DNA of 63,838 nucleotides, filler included, from Porpidia crustulata (lineage: Eukaryota), in the NCBI GenBank assembly GCA_964255105.1. It is 6 parts of 6 records of this genome, joined end to end, with 100 filler letters (N's around TTAATTAATTAA, not from the genome) between each part and the next. Parts side by side here need not be neighbours in the genome. Positions count along the whole stretch, not along the records: positions 32,012 to 42,559 come from CAXUWE010000758.1; 5 more parts are not named here. One strand, 5' to 3'. A program made the position numbers and the translations under genes. Of the stretch, positions 5,978 to 53,305 are shown one piece after another (positions within the stretch are counted from its first letter, which is position 1; every line of letters starts with the position of its first letter). The notes beneath the pieces were generated by a model, which saw only the letters and a program-made list of their open reading frames with translations, had not been told where the DNA came from and ran no database searches.

Positions 5978-7039
5978 GGGTGATTCGAAAGCCACTGCAA
6001 GGACTTTGACGCTTCGGCGGTAGCGGCATGTTTAACGTGGTCAGGGTGTTAGCCAAGGGTAGTATTAGAAGGCTGGTCATCGGTGGGATATGAAGGGGTG
6101 CGGAGTTCTTCTGGGTGTTTTTCGGACACCCATTAGTTTTGGAAGTCATGTACGTTTCTAGATTCTCGGCTGTCCTACCTTGAAATATGAAAGATAGAGC
6201 CTCCACTCTTTTTCCACGAGTTGGATATTATGTCTGTTGTGAAGTCTCTCAAATCGCAAACAGTCGAAACATTGCGAACGCGGTCCAGGCCATCCCATCC
6301 TCATTGAAATTGCAAGCTCAGCGAGAAGCGGCAGGAGAGGCGGTGTCTATGCCTCACATTTTACGATTTCAAGATCGAGAGGAACTTGGAAAAAATTGTA
6401 CCCAAGAGCATTAGTAACAGCATTGTACAAGTGATTTTCCTTATATTTGGTGTCCACACTTATCGCCAGACAATTGAAAGGAATCGTTCTCACCAGAGTT
6501 GCTCGGTTTTGGATTCGCTAGGGAGCCATCCTTTTGTATAGAAGTCGACCACCCGGCGTTTTGATAGCTCACTTCGCGGTTCAGAATTTTGCTGCAATCG
6601 GAGGGTTTAGCATTGACTTGACGTTTAGGGCGAAGGAGGTTCTAGTTCATTCTGGAGAGGGTGATCTCGTGGATCGTCGTTGCCTGGTGTTTTGCGATTC
6701 TATGAGTAGTTGTGAAGTTCTATATGAAGATACCTGATTGGGAGCTGGACGGGTGCCATTCATGGGACAAGCCTCATAGAGTAGATATAGTAAATAGGGT
6801 TAGGGTTTGCTCGATTCTCCAGTACTCCATCACCTACTTCTGAACCATAAGTAAGGATGCGGAGGTGCAAGGCGTATCGTTCCTGTGTTTGGCCGTGCCA
6901 CTCAAGGTGTACTCAGCTAGCCCGTATAGGATCCCATGTCTAGGGATAGCTCTGCTCTCATTTGCCTCATGACACCATCGTTACTTTGTCTACTTGGAGT
7001 CGTCTACTGAAATCTTGTTGGATACCTGTTCATTCCATC

Positions 7040-8569
7040 ATGCAACTCATCGATATCCCGTTCCCGGCCTTTCAATGCGTGATCGAAAACATGGTCGCAG
7101 CAGTGGGTCTTGCTAAGGCTATCCGGCTTCGACTGGTGTGCCGTAAGTCTCCATAGATTACAGTATGGATTGCTTCTATTACTAAGTCTTCTGACATAGA
7201 TTTATTTGATGCGCAGGTCACACGCGTAGTCTATGGGACTCGCATCTGTAACTTCTGGGAGGACTTTGGAGCACGAAGCATGAGTCCAGAGTGTCTGAAG
7301 ATGTGCCTAAGAACTAGAATCACCAGACAGAGAATATTCGGAAGAGACTTGCTCGATTCCATCATCAGCCAGATCGCTCATTTGTTACTCGATGATGCAG
7401 GTGTAGAAAAATCCAAGGAGCTACGCCTCCAATATCTATACGCCTTGTGCGACGCTGTGGCGTACAATCTTTCACCTTGGGAGATGTTAGACCTTCAAAG
7501 GTCGAGTCATGCAACAGCAGGCATCTCGGATCTATCTGAGCACATGCTCGCCGCGATGGCAGCTATAGGGAGCAAGCAACAACTACAAACCCTACTTTCT
7601 AACGATGTAGATCCAAACGTTAAAAGTAAAATTTTCGGTTTTGCTGCACAGAATGCGGCAAGAATCGGACAGGAGGACATGGTGTTACTACTGCTCGAAT
7701 ACGATACCAAAGTCCCTGATCGCAAAAATGCAGCAGAGGCGACTGCTGCGGCGCTCAAAGCAGCCTGCGAAATCGGCCAAGAACGAGTCGTTCAATCTAT
7801 GCTAGTTTCTCAAGACAAGATTGATGTCCTACCGGCGCACTTCGAAGCTGCAGTCGTGGCTGCCGCGCAAAATGGTCATGTCGATCTGGTGCGTTTACTC
7901 TTGGAGAGTGGCACATTCACCAACAAGGAGAACGTAATTGTTCAATCATTCTTGCAAGCTTCTCGTCGCGGCTTCACAGACGTTGTACAAATCTTGATTG
8001 AGTCCGGAGTGGATGTAAACATAGTCGACCACACGGGATTCAATGCCTTGAATAAAGCTGCAATGGGCGGCCATACACTCGTTGTCCGACAACTTCTACA
8101 ACATGGCGCGAAGTATGATGCGGTAATCTACAAGGATCCCTTGTTCCTGGCTGGGATAAATGGACATGAGGACGTCGTGCAGATGTTGCTCGACTGCGGG
8201 GCCCCTCTCAACGGTAAAGGAAATATACATTGTCCCCTACTCATCCAGGCGGCGCGGAAAGGTGAGTCCCGAATGGTGCGTTTCTGTCTAGAGAAGGGAG
8301 TGGACCTTAATGTTTGTCATCATGGAGACTTAGCGCTTAAGTTCGCCGCTGAACATGGCCACGAAGACACAGTCCGGCTGTTGGCCGGGTTCGGAGCCGA
8401 TGTAAACGGTCGGGAAGATCAAGATAGCCCGATGCTGACAGCCTTGGTATATGGCCGTGACCGTATGGTGAAGACACTGCTTGGGCTCGGCGCCAAAGAG
8501 GTCAATCCCCTCGAAACCTGCTACGCCGCCTACTTCGAAGCTGGTCAATTTCCAGTGAGGAGACCGTAG
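7040..8569 (+). CDS. Ankyrin-repeat protein with N-terminal F-box-like segment (2 exons)
   Basis: Exon 1 7040-7142 (MQLIDIPFPAFQCVIENMV...IRLRLVC), intron 7143-7199 GTAAGT..TAG, in frame with ORF 7280-8569. That ORF has about 8 ankyrin repeats (AAQNGHVDLVRLLLE, AAMGGHTLVVRQLLQHGA, AAEHGHEDTVRLL). Confidence 0.85.
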
Positions 8570-10589: not shown

Positions 10590-10689
10590 NNNNNNNNNNN
10601 NNNNNNNNNNNNNNNNNNNNNNNNNNNNNNNNNTTAATTAATTAANNNNNNNNNNNNNNNNNNNNNNNNNNNNNNNNNNNNNNNNNNNN
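10590..10689. other. Artificial contig linker (N-TTAATTAATTAA-N, 100 nt)
   Basis: Six-frame stop linker flanked by Ns; identical 100-nt design at all five junctions. Confidence 0.98.
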
Positions 10690-21254: not shown

Positions 21255-21354
21255 NNNNNNNNNNNNNNNNNNNNNNNNNNNNNNNNNNNNNNNNNNNNTT
21301 AATTAATTAANNNNNNNNNNNNNNNNNNNNNNNNNNNNNNNNNNNNNNNNNNNN
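21255..21354. other. Artificial contig linker
   Basis: N-TTAATTAATTAA-N, 100 nt. Confidence 0.98.
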
Positions 21355-31911: not shown

Positions 31912-32011
31912 NNNNNNNNNNNNNNNNNNNNNNNNNNNNNNNNNNNNNNNNNNNNTTAATTAATTAANNNNNNNNNNNNNNNNNNNNNNNNNNNNNNNNN
32001 NNNNNNNNNNN
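31912..32011. other. Artificial contig linker
   Basis: N-TTAATTAATTAA-N, 100 nt. Confidence 0.98.
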
Positions 32012-32843
32012 TACTAATAGTCTCGCTTGACAGTTGTGATAGCGAAACGGCCCTAGCAAGCTCAGGACCCTCAAAATACTTGCGGGTCACCTAATTTACC
32101 TACTTTCTATTGGTCCCCCAGTGTTTATTCAGTCCTTGGTCATCCACTTTTCACTACCTTACCTACCTTATGGTACTTCCATACCTTACCTTACCATACC
32201 AACTATCACCATAGATCCATCCATCGGAACCAACCTGTCAAACCCTTTGTCCGCGTGACCACTGTCTGTTTAGTCACTTCTCCACCCGCATCTCCTCAGT
32301 TTTTATCTTAAAATCTCATTGATTTTTTGGAGTGAATTTCAATAGCCTTTACTTAGGCGATACATCAGTACACCTAATAAGCGAGATAATTGCCATGCTT
32401 TGTACTATGCGTCTGGATTTGGTTCTGTTGGCCTAGATCATTCCCTGCAGTTCTTCCGTCAATGCTGCCGTGGTTGCTGTCTCTGGCACATGCTCAAAGA
32501 AAAGGGTACAGTATAAGATTAGCTACACAAGATGGTCAAGTCGCCTCTATACAACCTCTTCGTTTAACACAGTCATTCCAACTATGTCAATCATGAAATG
32601 TGATGTAAAAGTCACGCAGTCCTGGATGCCTATTGGTTTTCTTTGGCCCATCTGATCAAGACAGATACCTCGAATGTTTTGAATCAGATATTTGCAAAGC
32701 TTGCCTAGTGGACTTGACCATCAAGCGTGCGCTATGTTGAGGGAGTCTGTGTTCAAGAGAAGTGATCCTCAACCCTCCAAGATCCGACTATAAGTCCCAT
32801 TTCAAAGGCGACCAGTATGATGATCCGTTGAACAGATCTATGA

Positions 32844-33366
32844 ATGTTTTACCTAATGACAGTGACTGCTGAGAAAATTTTAGGGAGAAAAAAGTCGTTC
32901 ATGAGGCTGTCAATAGACAGCCATTCCAGACGTGCTCTGAGGCGCTACTTGTTGTCGACGAATTCAGTCTATTCGTGCTCAGATAGCTGGCTTCCCCTCT
33001 TTCCTTCAAAGAGCGAGCAAGACACTTCTACTCAAAGCGTTCGTCTAATGGTAAAACACTCAAATTTCGGAATGTACGTAGAACGACCAACATTCAAACC
33101 TTTTCAGTTGCGAAAAGAAGCTGATACGGGTGCGCGAGCCGGCAAAAGCTGATGATGCGCTCTCGACTGACAACCTCTTCAGATATTCTCAACATAATGA
33201 AAGTATGGAAAATCATGCAGCTCCCGTCCCACACAAGAACATTTTCATTTGAATATTGATTATTCTTAGTGGCAAGTCAATTCTCGGATGCTAAGGAGCA
33301 GTCTATCATGATGTCATCCACCCGGTCGATTGGAAGTCCTCATACATGGCCAAGCGCCTGGGCTAA
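32844..33366 (+). pseudogene. Possible small spliced orphan gene or decayed gene
   Basis: Canonical introns 33074-33182 (GTACGT..CTGAC..CAG) and 33203-33301 (GTATGG..GCTAAG..CAG) flank a 20-nt micro-exon. The spliced frame is open for about 104 aa. No recognisable domain. Confidence 0.3.
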
Positions 33367-34294
33367 ATAAAGAAATATTTGATCACTACAATGAAAGGCT
33401 TGGGCGAAGCTTGAAGGTACAAGAAGAGGATCATAGACTGTTCGCGACTCATCACAGTCGAGGCAAAACGAAATACCTGACAAATGATCAGACGAAAAGA
33501 GAGTTCTACTGGTGTTGCAATGCTTTTGCTTCTAGGATCGGCAGGATATGACACTGCATACTAGATTTCTTCGTACGATGATACCGCGAAGCATCGCCGC
33601 ACATTGAGGCTTACGAGGGACGAGGGTCGGATTCCAAAGTCGCTAGAGAGCAGTAACCGACGAATATGAAACTCAGATAATGTCAACGTTTCAGTGAAAT
33701 TCTATCATCTTCAAAATTGCTTTTAGTAGATCTAAGTATCAGTCGTATCAAAGACCATATATCAAGGATGAATCTCTAAAATTTTAGCTCTTTTGGAGTC
33801 TTGTTTGTGACGTCTAAAATGTGTGTCAGTGAGTCAGTACGCTAATCATTATCTCCGCTTAGTCTTGGATGCTCCCTCTCCGTCAGCGCGAATACACCGT
33901 ATCCCGAATCTGCTCAATACCCTCATGTTTTGACGACATATTGACTGGCATACCCTGCCTAGAATCTACCACTTACAGCCAGCTCTGCTCTACAAGTAGC
34001 TTAGCGTAGAGTGTTAATCTTTAGCCGTTATTTTCTGCTTGATGACAACCGCCAGCGTAACCAAACAGAAAGGGAATTGACTTAAAATACCTTGTCTATA
34101 TTGCTGATTATTGCTTTGACTAACTACTATTGGCCGATCGCAATGATCTTGCATATGCATGCTGTTTTTCAAGACGCCATGGACGGCACTGCTAGTCGTG
34201 AGACTGCAGAACGTAGAAAACCTCTTCTCGGACAATCTTTCTCTTTTTCACACCGAATCCTCCTGGAAACTAAGGCCGTTCTAGGAATCCAATC

Positions 34295-36393
34295 ATGGTG
34301 GAAATCGTAGGCTCAGCGGCTTCGCTCATCACCGTGCTCGATCTGACCGCTGTCGTTGGCAAGACACTCGTCACATTCGTTCGTGATGTTCGGGACGCAC
34401 CCAAAGAAATTCAACAAGTAGCGCAACGAATCTTGCGGTTTCAGTCCGTAGTGGCCTTCCAGTCGCGACTCCAGCTATGGAGCGTAGACGAGAATAGGGG
34501 TGCTGGAAGCCATTTTCTCTCCGCCGAAGATGTGAATGCTTTCAGGGAAGCACTATTAGGTGCTCAAGGTTGTTTAGAAAGTATGCAGAAGTACATGACT
34601 CCATACAAGGATCCAAGGACGAAGGTGCTGGGTGTTCTTTGGACACTTCGCGATCGGAAGCCGATTCTACGGCTGGAGGAGGATTTGCGTGCTGTTGAAG
34701 ACATTTTACTGAATATGCTAATGACTCTGAACACGTCCGTGATTTCAGCTTGCCCTTCTTTGTGGATAATTGACTGCTAGAATCCCCGCCACGATAGGAT
34801 CTACTTTGTCATTTGCAGTCCCCTTTGTCGAAAGACTATTTGGCTGACTCTCTCAAGGTCTGTCTTGTTGGCGTCTTTTAATAATTTTAACAACATTGCG
34901 AAGAACCAAGAAGTGGCAACTAGGCAGCTACAGCTAACCAGCGACTCTCATTCCCCACAAATCGTAACGGCCTCAAGCATCTCAAGCAATACGGATGTGG
35001 GCTCCTCAACCTCTACATCCATCGTGTCGACTCCGCAACAGCTCTTTGCAAGCACTAACGGCAAGAGACATACGTTGATGCCAAAATACTTGAAGTATCC
35101 GCAGTGGTCTGTCCAAAGGAATGGGATTTCCTCATACTTGGCTCTGTGCAGACATTGGGATGATTGGAAGTCAGAATATGGACTGATGGGATGTTGGCAA
35201 ATTCCATATTTTGATTTCGCCTTTTCAATCGCCTTACAAGCTAAAGCATCATTCTCAGTCGTTCACTGGCCAAAGATATGTTGCACGTTATCTGTCCGCA
35301 ACATTGTGCCTTGGAACTCAAAATTCATAAAAGCTTGCTCGACAGGAAATCTGCCTTACGTTAGGGAGCTCGCATTAGCTGGGCATGGTGGGCCTACGGA
35401 TATCGACAACTATGGATGGCCTGCACTTCACGTGAGGCCTCGTCATGCTAGATTCCACATTCGAGCTGACTTGCACTTAGCATGCAGTGAAGAGCGGTTC
35501 AGTTGATCTCGTCAAACTATTTCTTGACAACGGAGCTTGCGTAGACGACGTCGATAGACGACATTTTACGTATGTAAAAGGTTTCTTGGCTAGTATTAGA
35601 TATGTAGCTGACCTCTCTCGCCGCCGATGAAACAATGAGTGCTTTGACGGGCCAACTCCCCGCAGAGAACTCATTGTTCTGTCGTCTGCGAGTTTGTTAC
35701 AGAAGTCCGCTTCAGCGTGCCTGTTACTATGGGCATTTGGACATTGCGAGACTCTTGATGAACAGAGGAGCACTTATCGACCACGCCGATAGATATGGTT
35801 GCACTCCTCTACACAGCCTTTGGTTGGGCGATTCACCTTTCTCGCGGACCGACTTTGTCACAGCGATGCTCACAATATCAAATGTTACGATCTTATCTCC
35901 CTGTAAGGACATATGGCGTCCTGAAGTTTTAGCGGCCAAGTCTGGCTCTGCTGAAGATATCGCAATATTGGAAAAGCTTGGAGCTAATCTCTACAAATTA
36001 AACGATTGGGGTCGAGGCATTATGCATCATTGTTTACAAAATTCTAATCTGGCAATCTTCAACCACTTTGCTCCTCGCATGGTAAAGGATTGGATCCACG
36101 AATTCGATAATCGTGTTCGTACGCCTCTTCACTACTTGCTCTGCAGATCTCTGGAGAAGCCTAAGTCCGAGCTTGCAGAGCGATTGATTAGAGCAGGTGC
36201 AGATGTTCATGCTCGCGATATTCAGGGTCGTTCCGCATTTGATTATGCTAAGGATAACGATCTTAGATGCAAGAAATGGAGAGACGAAAGACTATGTCAG
36301 AACGTAGCCGGCTACGTCCGCGCTCTCCGAGCTTGCGACTACGATGTCCAGATCGATGAAGAAGGCGACATCTTGTGGCTTGCAGAGTCCTGA
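34295..36393 (+). CDS. HeLo-like/SesA-type fungal N-terminal domain plus ankyrin repeats (4 exons)
   Basis: MVEIVGSAASLITVLDLTAVVGKTLVTFVRDVRDAPKEIQQV...W..RDRKPI..LEEDL matches the HeLo-like N-terminus. Introns at 34735-34857, about 35432-35480 and 35570-35702. Ankyrins GWPALH|HAVKSG, SPLQRACYYGH, RTPLHYL..LIRAGADVHARD. Confidence 0.8.
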
Positions 36394-37722
36394 AGCAGAA
36401 CCTCAGATTTGAGCAACGAATGAGCAACTGCGCCTCCAGAACACTCTTTGCAACGATCTCTTACCACGTTATTGTTACTAGCGCTGGCACTTTTTTAAGA
36501 CTACCCGGCAGATGTTATATCCAACGATCAGGCAAAACATTCAACCTGGGCCGGTGTTTCCTCGCAACGATAACGTCAGGCCGTAATAGCACGAAGCAGA
36601 CATCTTGGTGGAAGTAAATCGCACATAGCACGGGACTCGGAGCAGGATCATTGAAATGAGGGCCCTCAAAATATCTCTATTGGGACGAAGAACAGGCCTT
36701 GGCCTCGGTGCTATTATTGTAGGTTTCGGAAGTCTATGTGGTGGAATTTTACGTCCAATTTCCTTATCACATGCGCCACATATCATCTGGGGTGTGCTCC
36801 GCTTCTCGAGTGGTCTTCGGCTCTTTTCTCTTCAGATCTCGGCGCATTGTAGTATATAAGATCTTACATAATTTCCTTCACCGACTTAAAATGCCTCCAA
36901 TTTTGGCCATAAAGTGACTGGCATGCGATTCATGATTACCATGCCCTCTGCGTACTCCACATTTGGTCAAAGTGACTCGGATATCCTCAGGTCTTGTTCA
37001 TTCGATAAAAGGGATGCCCTCCGTCGAATATAAAATTATTCAGCGATGCATATGCTCTAGATTTCTCCGCATTGTATACATGTCATTCTCTACGCGGGGG
37101 CGCGTGGTGTGAGGGGCAAGGAAGGACCGGCGGGTTGGAAGGTGAAGGGATCTCATGATACTAGATTCTTCCTTGAATTGATGCGATCGACTGAGGCAAT
37201 CACAGATCTTATCGACTTCTTGTACAGATGGTCACCAGGTGGTAGAGTCATGAAGTAGGTAACCAACAGTCGGGAAAGGGTGCATGCGAATCACTTGGTG
37301 GCTAAAACATGAAGAGGTCATCTGAGTTGCGAAATGTCTGAGAGTACGGTTCAAAAGCACCGTGGCAGTTACAGGGTACATGTGAGTAAGTCGGTGGGCC
37401 AACAACGGAGATCCATTTGAGTCGAAAACCCGTGGAGATTGTTTTCGGGGCCTTTCGTTGGCACGTTGTAGAGACAAGTTCCATGAGTACTCTGAGGCTG
37501 AAGCTGTGCTTCGATTGTGTGTCGTTGTATCTAGAACATCAGAAAGGGTTAAAGACTAGAATACTCGGGTCTTTTGACTCCAAATTGACACATATGACAG
37601 TTCGAATCTACTTTTAATCATTGTTCGACTTGAATGCCCTGCGTTGAAATAGGTAGCTTTATATATTACTCGTGCTCACCCCTCAACGGACCACCCTAAT
37701 AAAAACTACCCTATCACCCTAC

Positions 37723-37979
37723 CACGCGGGAGACAAAAAAATCCGGACCGCAAACACCTATCCTCCGCCCAAACCATGGAATTTACTACTAGATTTTAGA
37801 AGATATTTACTAGTATAATAATTCATCATCTTATTCTCGTCTTTAATAGATGTTGTATGATCTTGATCAGAGATCGACATTATGTTGTTGAATTTTCATC
37901 TCTAAAAATGTAGTAGTAAATCTAGTGATGTGGGCGCGGAATCAATATTCGCGGTCCGGATTTTTTTGTCTCCCGCGTG
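37723..37979. mobile_element. 257-bp non-autonomous DNA transposon (MITE) with perfect 29-bp TIRs, CAC...GTG ends
   Basis: CACGCGGGAGACAAAAAAATCCGGACCGC (37723-37751) is the exact reverse complement of 37951-37979. Subterminal inverted repeat ATTTACTACTAGATTTTAGA / TCTAAAAATGTAGTAGTAAAT, AT-rich core, flanks CCTAC / CCTAA. Confidence 0.88.
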
Positions 37980-38166
37980 CCTAAATGCCGAGTAGATATA
38001 ACCCTAACCCTGGATTGGGTGGTCTGTTGAGTATGGTCTGTACGCTAATCGTTATCTCCGGGCCCTCGCTTAGCACGACGGCGTGGACGGGTCAGGAAAG
38101 TCGCGTCTCCCTCTCCAAACAGCCGATCCATCAATCCATAGTCTTTGATATCCTCGTGATTCCAAG

Positions 38167-39499
38167 ATGCCTTATGGAGTTTCCAATTCTTATAGAAGGT
38201 ATTTACGCAGCGCTTGAGATCATGCTGACCAGAACGACTGACATTCATCACAGAGGCATACTTACGACCTATTCGCGCCAACCCCAACGCGTTGCCGACT
38301 CCTTCAACGACGATGTCCCACGCAAGAGGATCCGGATGAACGTGGATGGCACAGTTATAGAAGAGAACCTTGGTCCCAAGGCTATATCGGAAGCCTTCAC
38401 ACTATTTCTGTCCGAGCAACCAGCAAGCTCATCAACGGCTCCCTCAAGCCCACGACCAGCCGAGGATGCGCTTTTCTCAGACAACGCGCCCGCCAACGTT
38501 GGCCCAATCGTTCAATCGCCACCCTCCTCTCCCCCGCCCGTTTTCCCTTCACCAGAAGCAGCAGCGCGTAGACCCGCCTTCTCCTTCCTCAAACGTAAGC
38601 GGTCAGCTCACGGATCTCTCGGGTCGACAAACGAGCCGCTTTCTGACATCGACCGTAACCCATGCAAATTTCCGTGGCCAGACAAAAAGATCCCTTTGAC
38701 GCAAATGCAGATTGATCTGGGCGGAGAAGTACGAAAAACGTGTAGGACGTGTGGGATGGAGTATATACCATCAAGTAAGGAGGATGCGGCGCTGCACAAA
38801 GATTTCCATACCATGAATTCAGAAGGGGTGGATCTTGGGAGAACATTTCTGAAGGACGACGGAATCAAGAGAGTTCCTCCGAAAACTGGATCCGAGGGTG
38901 AAACAATGGTGGTAGTGGACCGGCGGAATGCTTTGGGTGTGCGAAATAGGGTAAAAAAGGTGTTGGAGGTGGTCAATGCCGAATTATCTGCTGCGGAAAT
39001 AAAGGATGACCAATTATGGGGTGTCTTGCCGCCGAATCCTCCTAACCGGTCCAAACAGGCTCTCAAGACACGCAAAGCCAGAAAGGAAGCGCCGGTCAAG
39101 CGAAGGGATCGGTTTAAGGCCTTTCTCTATCTTGTAGGGGACAAATGCGTGGGATTCTGTCTGGCCGAAAAAATCGTTGCCGCGTTTCAGGTCATCAATC
39201 CTATGGCGGAGAATGAAACGAGTAAAATTGGCACAGTCTCCAGCAGCTCGTCCATCACAACATCAGCTGTTGCTGACGCAGCCACCGTGGGCATTTGTCG
39301 AATATGGGTGTCAAAATCACGCCGAGGTCAAGGTATCGCAATTGACTTGCTGAATTGTGCAAGAACTAATTTCTTTTATGGAATGGAAGTACCAAAGGAA
39401 TTTGTGGCATTCAGTCAACCAACAGATAGTGGAGGTCGACTTGCGAAAAGGTGGTTCGAAGCGGAGACTGGGTGGCATGTGTACAAGGGAGATCCATAG
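38167..39499 (+). CDS. ECO1: Cohesin acetyltransferase Eco1/ESCO
   Basis: PIP-like QMQIDLG, zinc finger TCRTCGMEY..EDAALHKDFH, acetyltransferase GICRIWVSKSRRGQGIA..AFSQPTDSGGRLA. Probable start ATG 38167 with intron 38199-38253. Confidence 0.92.
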
Positions 39500-40439
39500 A
39501 TCATGCATGCAGAGTGAAGAAATATTCACCAAACTTCAAGTCGGCACGGAGCAAATGAATTGAAAACACGCTTCCCCTAATGTTGTAACCTCCACTGTGT
39601 TTCCGTTGGACAGGTAGGACTCGCAACCGTCTTTTCTCGAACATCCCACCGCTCTGCCCCCCATCTACAGTGACAGGAAATGCATTAAGCACTACTTATG
39701 TCCCATAAAATGAGGATCTCCTTTCAGAGGTGAGATAGGAAGTTTCTTGATAATGGTAGGGGCCAAATATTATATATGGCCTATTCAGAGGTGGTGGCTC
39801 GTGGAATCTCTTTCTCAGACCACCTGGAGCTCTTTCTGGTGCTGCATCAAAACCCCAGCCAATTCTATTGGTTATCGATTTTGTTGAGACAAATCTATCG
39901 GGTTGGGGATCGGCAGTCCGTTTTGAACACAATCATCTAGGTGGTCTTGCGATACAGTAAGTCTCTCCGCTCGCGATGGATTTTAAGAGAATCAGGCATA
40001 CGGTATCCGGTCAGGGGTCTTGTGTTCATCCGTACATTGGTGGGTTCGAAACGAGGCATGATAAGTCCACAGAAATGTAGATGAAATTTGATCGGTAGCC
40101 GCCCGAACGAGACAGGACTTGAATGTTCTGTCAACAGGCGGCATTGTTCATCCATGAGTTGATGGACTCGACGATTCTGCACAATTGCAGATATCCACTT
40201 AGCCAAAGAATTGCTGGACACAGCTTTGATAGCCCTAAAATATTATATTTAGATGCCTTAAACCTTAAGTGACGGCCGCCATTCCCGAGGGTCTGGACAG
40301 ACGATGATTGTTAAGGTAGTGGGTAAGCATCCGATAAGGTAATGGCAGTCAACCGCTGGATCCTGCCTGACTTCCTGACTTCTGTATGATTCATTGATCC
40401 CGATTGCCTCCATGACGGCTATCTTTCACCCTCATCGTC

Positions 40440-42213
40440 ATGTCTGGCACCAACCCTTTCCGCCGTAAGACAGTACTCGAACCAACTCCGCCGAATGCAC
40501 CCGGGAACCTGGATATTGAACGGATCGAAGCTCGCTTTCCTACTATAGACACAGGTAAGCTGTACCGGTCACATTATGACTCTCGAACTACGAAGCTAAT
40601 CCCTAGAAGATCTCCCACCAGCGCCCAAGACGAAGACCGTACGCATATTGTCTCCTCATTCCTCGACACCCGACAACGACCATGCCACTTCCCATGACTC
40701 TCTCACTCTGTCTCGGTCCTTTGCGGACTCTCATATAGCTGTTGATCCTGCTAGAAGTTCCGACAAAAATTCACCAGTGGATCCTTTTGGTATGGAATCT
40801 GATGAAGGGGAGGCCACGACGGAAGATGAGGATTTGAGGAAAAATACAATCGAGAATGCCGGTCATCGTTCGACAAATTCCACTGCGCCCAAAATTTCGC
40901 CCAACCCTTTCCAGAAAACGCTTGCCAGCCACTCCTTGGGAATCAACACCATTGATAGAGACGAGAGGGACGGAAGTATTAATGCAAGGACAAGGGCAGG
41001 TGGTACAAGACCTCATTACGATGTTGATGAATTTAAGAGGCTACTCCTGACTGGCGAAAGAAGCGCGGCAGAATCTAGCACCCCTTCAACGCCTTCTATT
41101 CATGGCCAGGGCACGCAAAATGTGGGTTATAGCAGCAGTAATACAGATACATCTTCGGAATCGAGACATTCCATCTTTGAGCCAATGCCAAGGACAAGTC
41201 AGGACACACCACGAACGTCACACGAGAATTCTCCTGCCGGAGATGAGCGAAAGCTATCAATACAACAACCCTTCACGCGCACGGAGAGGACCCGTCCTCC
41301 TGCTCTAAGCCCTGGGCATGGTAGTCACCCAACATCCAACATTCCACAGACAGTCTCTTTTCAAGATCCTTTATTGTCATTTCAACCACCCAGCAGCAGT
41401 GAACATACCATTTCTGGGCGACCTACACCAAATTCACCTCAGACGCCTACTGACCTGAATAAGCCCTTACCTCTGCCGCCAGCTGTAGACTCACTTGGAA
41501 ATAAGGTACAAGCATCCGCTGAATTCAACAGGAGATGGTCACAAAATGAGTCCTTTGAACTCCGCGGTCCACTGTCCAACAGCCCCTCGTCGAAAAAGGA
41601 ACCCCCATTACCACCCATTACTCGACGGCATAGCCAGCTTCGTCCAAAGTCTTTTGGGGGCCCTCCTGGAAGATCGATGAGAATATCGGAGGAGAACTCG
41701 TCAGACTTTAAACCGCAACCTCAACAACGTACCCCTACCGCAAGTTCGAAAGTACCGCCAGCGCCGCCACCACGGCGTTCCGGTCTCACTCGCAGCTTAT
41801 CTACAGCTAGCAATTCCTCCTCCATCTCCGCTGTTCGCACGCCCTCTGCATCCTCGAATCCAGACGATGAGGGTACCAAATTCTCAAAGTCCCCACCGCC
41901 TGTACCACCAGCCAGAACACCCTCCATATCGTCTGTCAAACGACCACCCAGACAAACCCCAATCCCGAATGCATCCCCACAAATAGCCCCACCAGTACCA
42001 CCAAGGCGAAGAGACTCTAGTCAGAGTAGTCTGACACAATCTCGACCGAGCGGAGAGTACCGCACCGAGCGCAACAGGGGTGACTCGAACGCCTCTTCTC
42101 TCCCATCAGATACCACGACACCCTCGGAACCAGATCTCCAGGACAAGGATGTCCTCGCCGATCTAACAGCGCTGCAAAGGGAAGTCGATGAGCTGCGAGG
42201 GAAGCTGAAATGA
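40440..42213 (+). CDS. Pro/Ser-rich hypothetical protein with PxxPPxR (SH3-ligand-like) motifs and C-terminal coiled coil (2 exons)
   Basis: MSGTNPFRR start, intron from 40555, DVDEFKRLLLTG block, repeated PPPITRRH/PPAPPPRR/PPPVPPAR/PPVPPRRR, terminal DVLADLTALQREVDELRGK. Confidence 0.75.
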
Positions 42214-42559
42214 GGCTGCCCAACAAACACCCTACACTCACGAGCGCATACCAGGTCCGATGGAGAGAGTTTGGCAGCTCTTTCACCACCCTGGGCGTCA
42301 CGATCGAAAATTTTCGGCGTTCGGACGAATATACAGCGTGCTACATGGAGCGATGGCGTCTCGAGGGCAGAATCCCCCCAGTGGAGTTCATGTTACATAT
42401 TCAATGATGAAACGTTTTGAGGAAAGGAGATTCTCGGAGCTACGAATATGCAAGATTTTAATGGGTGAAGCTGATACATTAGCAGCAGCAGCGGAGACAG
42501 CTTGGTCCCTCCAGTGAATCAAAGCCCAACCCCCGAATCCGACCTCCTCGTCATCCTCT

Positions 42560-42659
42560 NNNNNNNNNNNNNNNNNNNNNNNNNNNNNNNNNNNNNNNNN
42601 NNNTTAATTAATTAANNNNNNNNNNNNNNNNNNNNNNNNNNNNNNNNNNNNNNNNNNNN
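42560..42659. other. Artificial contig linker
   Basis: N-TTAATTAATTAA-N, 100 nt. Confidence 0.98.
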
Positions 42660-53205: not shown

Positions 53206-53305
53206 NNNNNNNNNNNNNNNNNNNNNNNNNNNNNNNNNNNNNNNNNNNNTTAATTAATTAANNNNNNNNNNNNNNNNNNNNNNNNNNNNNNNNNNNNNNN
53301 NNNNN
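53206..53305. other. Artificial contig linker
   Basis: N-TTAATTAATTAA-N, 100 nt. Confidence 0.98.

Follow-up and report, generated by a model that had tools for sequence, protein, structure and literature searches.

What is the 257-bp palindrome that lies just upstream of ECO1 in this stretch of the Porpidia crustulata genome, and did it arrive there as a mobile element? The stretch analysed (63,838 bases, hereafter 'the window') consists of six contig-like pieces, descending in length from 10,589 to 10,533 bp, of which the fourth (32012-42559) carries the palindrome. Because these are joined pieces and not one locus, distances across the spacers between them are meaningless, and all statements of copy number made from the window cover 63.3 kb of one draft assembly. 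The spacers themselves read N44-TTAATTAATTAA-N44 (10590-10689, 21255-21354, 31912-32011, 42560-42659 and 53206-53305). The palindrome is probably a miniature inverted-repeat transposable element (MITE), that is, a non-autonomous cut-and-paste DNA transposon inserted upstream of ECO1. An earlier, 'sequence-only reading' of the same DNA had gone further, and had inferred a MITE that resembles Transib and the recombination signal sequences (RSS), from a Transib-like or other CMC-type family.

The anatomy of the element comprises the following features:

37723-37979, no strand assigned: the element, a palindromic, non-coding, MITE-like unit (inverted ends, fold, and no open reading frame (ORF) above 45 aa).
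37723-37751, plus strand: left terminal inverted repeat CACGCGGGAGACAAAAAAATCCGGACCGC, 29 nt, perfect (pattern search).
37951-37979, minus strand: right terminal inverted repeat, the perfect reverse complement of the left one (pattern search).
37781-37815, plus strand: two direct copies of the subterminal motif ATTTACTASTA, at 37781-37791 and 37805-37815 (pattern search).
37911-37921, minus strand: inverted copy of ATTTACTASTA in the right arm, the part best conserved (as N-V-V-V-N-L-V) in P0123, the related end described below (alignment).

At the left junction ATCACCCTAC is followed directly by CACGCGGGAGACAAAAAAATCCGGACCGC, and at the right junction GCGGTCCGGATTTTTTTGTCTCCCGCGTG by CCTAAATG. 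When the window is searched with CACGCGGGAGACAAAAAAATCCGGACCGC, allowing up to 3 mismatches, the two ends of the element are the only matches (0.00 expected, from 100 shuffles). The arms are complementary at 78% over 82 nt (37723-37804 against 37898-37979), distributed over the ends, a block reading CGCCCA and one of 17 nt (ATTTACTACTASATTTT), and this complementarity ends abruptly at CAC/GTG. Within the window the motif ATTTACTASTA is confined to 37781 (+), 37805 (+) and 37911 (-), a count of 3 against 0.85 expected that 6 of 100 shuffles also reach. Folded as DNA, the element reaches -59.8 kcal/mol, compared with -21.6 +/- 3.2 for 200 shuffled versions (z = -12), none of which is as stable. 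Its interior is AT-rich and its tips are GC-rich; the longest ORF within it, measured stop to stop, spans 45 aa, and none there contains a Pfam domain. At 257 bp and without coding capacity it lies inside the size range of MITEs (non-coding, less than about 800 bp), and its terminal inverted repeats agree at 29/29 nt. The sequence-only reading had described a 257-bp element with perfect 29-bp terminal repeats and additional subterminal inverted repeats; both descriptions hold, the latter through the 82-nt arms and the presence of ATTTACTASTA in each of them.

A related end exists in at least one other place, which supports the presence of a repeat family. Further copies were sought through spurious ORFs that read through the ends of the element in protein collections, and a profile built from the two outward-read arms, compared with 1.84 billion representative proteins, gave 2 matches at E <= 0.001 (P0122 and P0123). 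P0122 was rejected as a relative, as a repeat artefact with 8 stretches. P0123 is a spurious ORF of 180 aa, containing no Pfam domain, that matches at E = 9.7e-6 and aligns to both arms over 29 residues; against the right arm its identity is 59% over 29 aa (tblastn E = 3e-6). The end of P0123 reads LYISENVVVNLVVWAGDQRLRYGLICLAR, compared with IFISKNVVVNLVMWARNQYSRSGFFCLPR in the right arm and NLVVNSMVWAEDRCLRSGFFCLPR in the left. P0123 retains the tip (C-L-A-R against C-L-P-R) and the subterminal block N-V-V-V-N-L-V (AATGTAGTAGTAAATCTAGT in the element), and then diverges, much as the end of a second family member, situated in a different flank, should look. An orthologous locus appears unlikely, with no similarity in any frame past about 25 residues beyond the tip; a shared old insertion is likewise argued against because the two ends of the element are identical to each other, yet differ from P0123 at at least 4 positions. 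Membership of a repeat family of MITEs is therefore the most likely status of the element.

The stability of the fold invites a different explanation, that of a local palindrome which has never moved and whose hairpin, upstream of ECO1, would have a structural or regulatory role or give rise to small RNA. Such a hairpin could well be single-copy, as the element is in the window, and there is a weak likeness to MIR7533, a family of long-hairpin microRNA precursors (24 bits, E = 0.04). That score, however, is far below the Rfam gathering score of 230 and reflects hairpin shape only, while the related end in an unrelated flank (P0123), the sharp CAC/GTG boundaries, the subterminal repeats and the flanking near-repeats are hallmarks of a transposon. 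An immobile hairpin thus appears highly improbable.

If the MITE was inserted, its flanks might be expected to preserve a target-site duplication, and those flanks contain the following:

37718-37722, plus strand: left candidate target-site duplication, CCTAC (flank comparison).
37980-37984, plus strand: right candidate target-site duplication, CCTAA, agreeing with the left at 4/5 positions (flank comparison).
37694-37722, plus strand: CCCTA-rich left flank, degenerate and telomere-like, with CCCTAA, CCCTA and CCCTA (count).
38000-38011, plus strand: AACCCTAACCCT, two telomere-like units in the right flank (pattern search).

Measured at the CAC/GTG tips, the flanks agree at 1/2 positions for a length of 2 nt, 0/3 for 3 nt, 1/4 for 4 nt, 4/5 for 5 nt, 1/8 for 8 nt and 3/9 for 9 nt, and 5 is the best-fitting length among 2-10 nt. 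An agreement of 4/5 or better is found at 1.63% of 61,641 random positions, and a duplication-like pattern of any length at 10.5%. The CCTAC/CCTAA pair that had been read from the sequence is thus present as described; the proposed 5-bp duplication keeps its place as the best length, as a single imperfect pair with the chance levels just given. The surrounding CCCTA enrichment is considerable: units begin at 37694, 37709, 37717 and 38002 on the plus strand, which amounts to 4 in 84 nt compared with 41 in all 63,838 nt (Poisson P about 3e-7), and no other 84-nt stretch of the window has 3 or more. Across the window as a whole CCCTAA is not enriched (20 seen against 22.7 expected). An interstitial telomere was considered and rejected, as no more than two units stand in tandem, the rest being scattered CCCTA, and AACCCTAACCCT has a twin in another promoter-like region (6796-6807). 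What had been called telomere-like repeats is accordingly CCCTA-rich as claimed, in the form of a degenerate tract and not a telomere array, and is more likely to be a promoter motif or a short degenerate tract. It may also be observed that GAGTAGATATA, beside the AACCCTAACCCT dimer at 37990-38011, recurs in intergenic DNA at 6779-6807 with the dimer in the opposite orientation, an ankyrin-repeat ORF (7157-8566) following about 350 nt downstream; GAGTAGATATA and the telomere-like dimer may together form an ordinary promoter module, and not telomeric DNA.

Several observations weigh against the interpretation as a mobile MITE. The CCCTA-rich context probably raises the chance of a 4/5 flank match, and an imperfect duplication beside perfect ends is slightly odd for a young insertion. 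No empty-site allele was seen within the window, and no second copy of the element was found there by exact and mismatch-tolerant patterns, by blastn with a word size of 7 or by an nhmmer profile of both arms (next-best window match, E = 9.7). None of the 60 ORFs of at least 130 aa that were scanned (of 61 in the window, the ORF at 38611-39126 on the minus strand being left out) contains a transposase domain. In the protein collections, 0 of the 5 small ORFs of the element are present; a search with the inward frames (ORFs of 18-93 aa) gave 3 candidates and one with the outward frames, P0123 added (ORFs of 15-97 aa), gave 9, none of either at E <= 10, while ORFs longer than 97 aa were covered by the representative-protein search alone, with matches listed at E <= 0.001. 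P0123, finally, is known from protein only, may come from the same genome or another, and might even be an orthologous end. The 0 matches of the end sequence in a collection confined to bacterial and archaeal contigs were to be expected.

A mobile MITE is nevertheless probable, and the manner in which it would have come to its present position can be outlined. Encoding nothing itself, the element would depend for its movement on a DDE transposase supplied in trans from another genomic locus. The sequences that this enzyme recognises would be the subterminal ATTTACTASTA repeats and, in the 29-bp ends, the conserved 12-nt tip CACGCGSGAGAC. Insertion would have taken place in a CCCTA-rich stretch of the ECO1 upstream region (promoter or leader), most likely through a cut staggered by 5 bp (CCTAC/CCTAA), and was probably recent, because both 29-nt ends are still identical. 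The gene concerned is annotated as follows:

38167-39499, plus strand: ECO1, an ESCO-type acetyltransferase, with exon 1 at 38167-38198, an intron at 38199-38253 and exon 2 at 38254-39499 (Pfam and homologues).

Its identity is given by matches to PF13880 (ESCO acetyltransferase, 4.7e-26) and PF13878 (ESCO zinc-finger, 2.6e-12). The start codon at 38167 opens MPYGVSNSYR, which is followed by the 55-nt intron and GILTTYSRQ, in agreement with the N-terminus MPFGVSNSFKRGTLKTYSRQ of the Mycoblastus sanguinarius protein P0010. With the ATG so placed, its distance from the element's last base is 188 nt, close to the value of about 190 bp estimated earlier.

The flanks also raise the question of whether the 257-bp element is the whole of the mobile unit, since a second inverted repeat lies outside it:

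37682-37696, plus strand: left arm of the outer inverted repeat, CTCAACGGACCACCC, 15 nt, lying 26 nt outside the element (self-comparison).
38017-38031, minus strand: right arm of the outer inverted repeat, matching at 14/15, lying 37 nt outside the element (self-comparison).

The element could, on this evidence, be nested in or aimed at a palindromic CCCTA sequence bounded by CTCAACRGACCACCC (37682-38031), or the composite could itself be the repeat. The outer repeat CTCAACRGACCACCC (14/15) brackets the element almost symmetrically and is unique in the window, with a rough chance of about 0.01 within 700 nt, and the strong enrichment of the flanks in CCCTA points the same way. In P0123, moreover, the residues I-L-G-W-N-A-E lie 17 nt beyond the tip, compared with L-L-G-W-S-V-E in the left flank of the element (TTATTAGGGTGGTCCGTTGAG) and I-G-W-S-V-E, in another frame, in the right flank; for the shared G-W-x-x-E a chance of about 1e-3 within 20 residues is estimated. 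This hints, from few residues and two elements, that TTAGGG/GGGTGG-containing sequence may adjoin independent family members, either as a preferred target or as part of a composite unit. However, the similarity of the arms falls away to nothing between the inner and outer repeats, the spacers are of unequal length (26, 37 and 17 nt), the outer repeat CTCAACRGACCACCC is flanked by no duplication, and the comparison with P0123 depends on protein, not DNA. A larger or site-specific unit is judged unlikely. As a separate observation, 17 nt past the tip of P0123 there seems to be a GGGTGG...GAG sequence similar to the outer repeat CTCAACRGACCACCC.

To which superfamily, then, might the MITE belong? 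A Transib end consists of a heptamer (consensus CACAATG), a spacer of 23 or 12 bp and a nonamer, giving a 38-bp end, and the consensus nonamer as printed is AAAAAAATC (Kapitonov and Jurka 2005, PMC1131882). The same nonamer is found in the element:

37735-37743, plus strand: AAAAAAATC in the left terminal inverted repeat, equal to the Transib consensus nonamer and 5 nt past the heptamer, with a mirror copy at 37959-37967 on the minus strand (pattern search).

A genuine Transib-superfamily MITE, served by a RAG1-core-like transposase, with 5-bp duplications and an RSS-like heptamer and nonamer, would be the first of its kind in Ascomycota. In its favour are the CAC tip, the 4/5 flank match at the best length of 5 bp, the moderately GC-rich candidate target CCTAC, as for the Transib targets described in PMC1131882, and the nonamer itself, which occurs only twice in the 63.8 kb (0.84 expected), exactly and at both ends of the element. 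Against these stands the layout: AAAAAAATC follows the heptamer after 5 nt and not 12 or 23, and the heptamer of the element, CACGCGG, agrees with CACAATG at 4/7 positions. P0123, furthermore, reads G-L-I-C where the element has G-F-F-C, and since TTT encodes neither Leu nor Ile, the run of A is broken there; conservation extends to the subterminal ATTTACTAC block but not to the nonamer. That the subterminal repeat is the best conserved part and the nonamer the least points to a transposase that binds the subterminal sites. Transib is, in the table of Muszewska et al. (2017, PMC5751038), the sole superfamily missing from fungi (entry 0, 'Absent'), and Kapitonov and Jurka report soybean rust as the only fungal host; no transposase partner was seen in the window among 60 of the 61 ORFs of at least 130 aa. 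The resemblance to RSS and Transib is attractive but fails on spacing, the one architectural test that was run, and a true Transib MITE is quite unlikely.

The RSS-like layout proposed from the sequence is therefore not supported (a 5-nt spacer in place of 12 or 23, a heptamer at 4/7, and an A-run that is broken in P0123), and 5-bp duplications are not unique to Transib, since hAT5 elements also produce them (PMC12730594). What remains of the broader assignment is a non-coding element with terminal inverted repeats, a relative in P0123, and CAC...GTG ends that suit the clade of CACTA, Mirage, Chapaev and Transib (CMCT); the Transib layout proper is lost on spacing. An undescribed Transib/CMC lineage of lichen-forming Ascomycota, with 5-bp duplications, a compressed heptamer-nonamer end and a choice of CCCTA/GGGTGG palindromic promoter targets, is a very doubtful proposition; if true, it would bring a Transib-like cut-and-paste system into a phylum of fungi from which surveys have reported none. 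No description of such a MITE, Transib-like or CMC-type, from any lichen fungus was found in a literature that largely lacked subscription journals and Repbase Reports.

Subterminal repeated motifs are, classically, a feature of CACTA, hAT or P elements, and the element shares it. The MITE might accordingly belong to some other superfamily (CACTA/EnSpm with 3-bp duplications, Chapaev with 4-bp duplications, hAT5, MULE or PIF), with its duplication blurred or with the 4/5 match produced by the CCCTA-rich flank. CMC/EnSpm transposases are present in fungi and those of Transib are not, going by PMC5751038, and EnSpm-like families that end in CAC..GTG and make 3-bp duplications have been described from fungi, as have the 5-bp duplications of hAT5 (PMC12730594). 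A shifted reading, one base outside the tips, also gives CTA on both sides. At the tips themselves, however, the flanks do not suit such families: they read AC/CC where Tc1/mariner has TA and TAC/CCT where PIF/Harbinger has TWA, and agree at only 3/9 for the 9-bp duplication of Mutator, and the agreements at 2, 3, 4 and 8 nt (1/2, 0/3, 1/4 and 1/8) are no better. For hAT, the 8-nt flanks thus agree at 1/8, and the terminal base at position 3, always G in hAT (legend of Figure S7, PMC1131882), is C. The perfect ends, moreover, argue against an age great enough to erase a duplication. An origin in one of these superfamilies is on balance improbable. The CMCT clade is characterised by CA..TG termini and duplications of 2-5 bp (Kojima 2025, PMC12730594); the element ends in CAC...GTG, and these tips together with the possible short duplication fit that clade best, as a candidate placement and not as proof of Transib proper.

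A tRNA origin of the tip was also considered and rejected. The first 12 nt, CACGCGGGAGAC (37723-37734, and 37968-37979 on the minus strand), match, at every position, nt 36-47 of the animal tRNA-Asp(GUC) printed in PMC5699543, with which the left flank also agrees at 3/5 bases. Neither ARAGORN nor Rfam gives a tRNA-like fold: ARAGORN finds no tRNA gene in the window, and Rfam finds none at its gathering score and none at E <= 1 around the element. The match of the tip to tRNA-Asp is probably a coincidence.

The remaining observations concern ECO1 and its neighbours. P0001, a 504-aa ORF in the protein collection (window 37985-39499), starts directly at the end of the MITE and runs on through leader and intron of ECO1. 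It reflects prokaryote-style gene calling applied to eukaryotic DNA, the true coding sequence being 38167-38198 plus 38254-39499. Immediately upstream of ECO1, a block of some 115 nt (38010-38125) resembles 33800-33900, about 400 nt upstream of an ORF that starts at 34295, and the two have in common the 21-mer GTACGCTAATCRTTATCTCCG (twice in the window, 0 expected), CTTAG and CTCCCTCTCC; the block may represent a promoter or leader module common to the two sites, or else a short repeat of some age. The region at 33.8 kb was rejected as a paralogous empty site, as the likeness starts about 30 nt beyond the element and is hence uninformative on insertion. The upstream neighbours (34274-36393) are an ORF without a Pfam match (34295-34780) and an ankyrin-repeat ORF (35635-36393), a pair that gives the impression, and only that, of a fungal NLR-type gene.

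The protein encoded by ECO1 also bears on the host. It has 478 homologues at E <= 1e-20; among the best 120 of these 478, 14 carry an organism name, and all 14 are from what we take to be lichen-forming Lecanoromycetes (Mycoblastus, Xanthoria, Caloplaca, Pseudocyphellaria and others). Identity to the host protein is 49-58% for the 14 named homologues and reaches 70% for the best other matches among those 120. These homologues place the host among the ascomycetes, near the lichen mycobionts.

Taken at its plainest, the element is probably a further example of a small DNA transposon situated near a gene, from the lichen mycobionts, whose mobile elements have barely been catalogued. Its insertion 188 nt before the start codon could alter the expression of an essential cohesion gene. 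If 5-bp duplications and a RAG1-like partner were both true of it, the RAG ancestor would have an ascomycete lineage, and its known distribution would change, and a preference for telomere-like promoter motifs, if true, would be an unusual choice of target.

Among known systems, four offer useful comparisons. The hAT5 elements (cited in PMC12730594) share the possible 5-bp duplication, and differ at the third terminal base, which is G in hAT and C here (PMC1131882). The non-autonomous Transib elements of insects and sea urchin (TransibN, PMC1131882) are alike in their CAC tip, possible 5-bp duplication, short non-coding form and possession of the AAAAAAATC block in the end; unlike them, the present element has that block at 5 nt instead of 12 or 23, a heptamer at 4/7 and a block that P0123 does not conserve, and its host is an ascomycete, a group without a reported Transib transposase (PMC5751038). 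The CMCT elements (EnSpm, Chapaev, Mirage, Plavaka and ESTA; PMC12730594) share CA..TG termini, a candidate duplication within 2-5 bp and, in the case of CACTA, subterminal repeated motifs, whereas the flanks here misfit lengths of 2, 3 and 4 bp when measured at the tips, these read CACGC and not CACTA, and the CMCT lineages come mostly from Basidiomycota and Mucoromycota (PMC12730594). In the lichen fungus Umbilicaria pustulata, 4 MITE families and 18 unclassified families with terminal inverted repeats are reported (PMC8773270), and these, likened to the element by description only, are similar in having a lichen-forming ascomycete as host and in being small elements with terminal inverted repeats and no superfamily assignment, some of which lie near genes.

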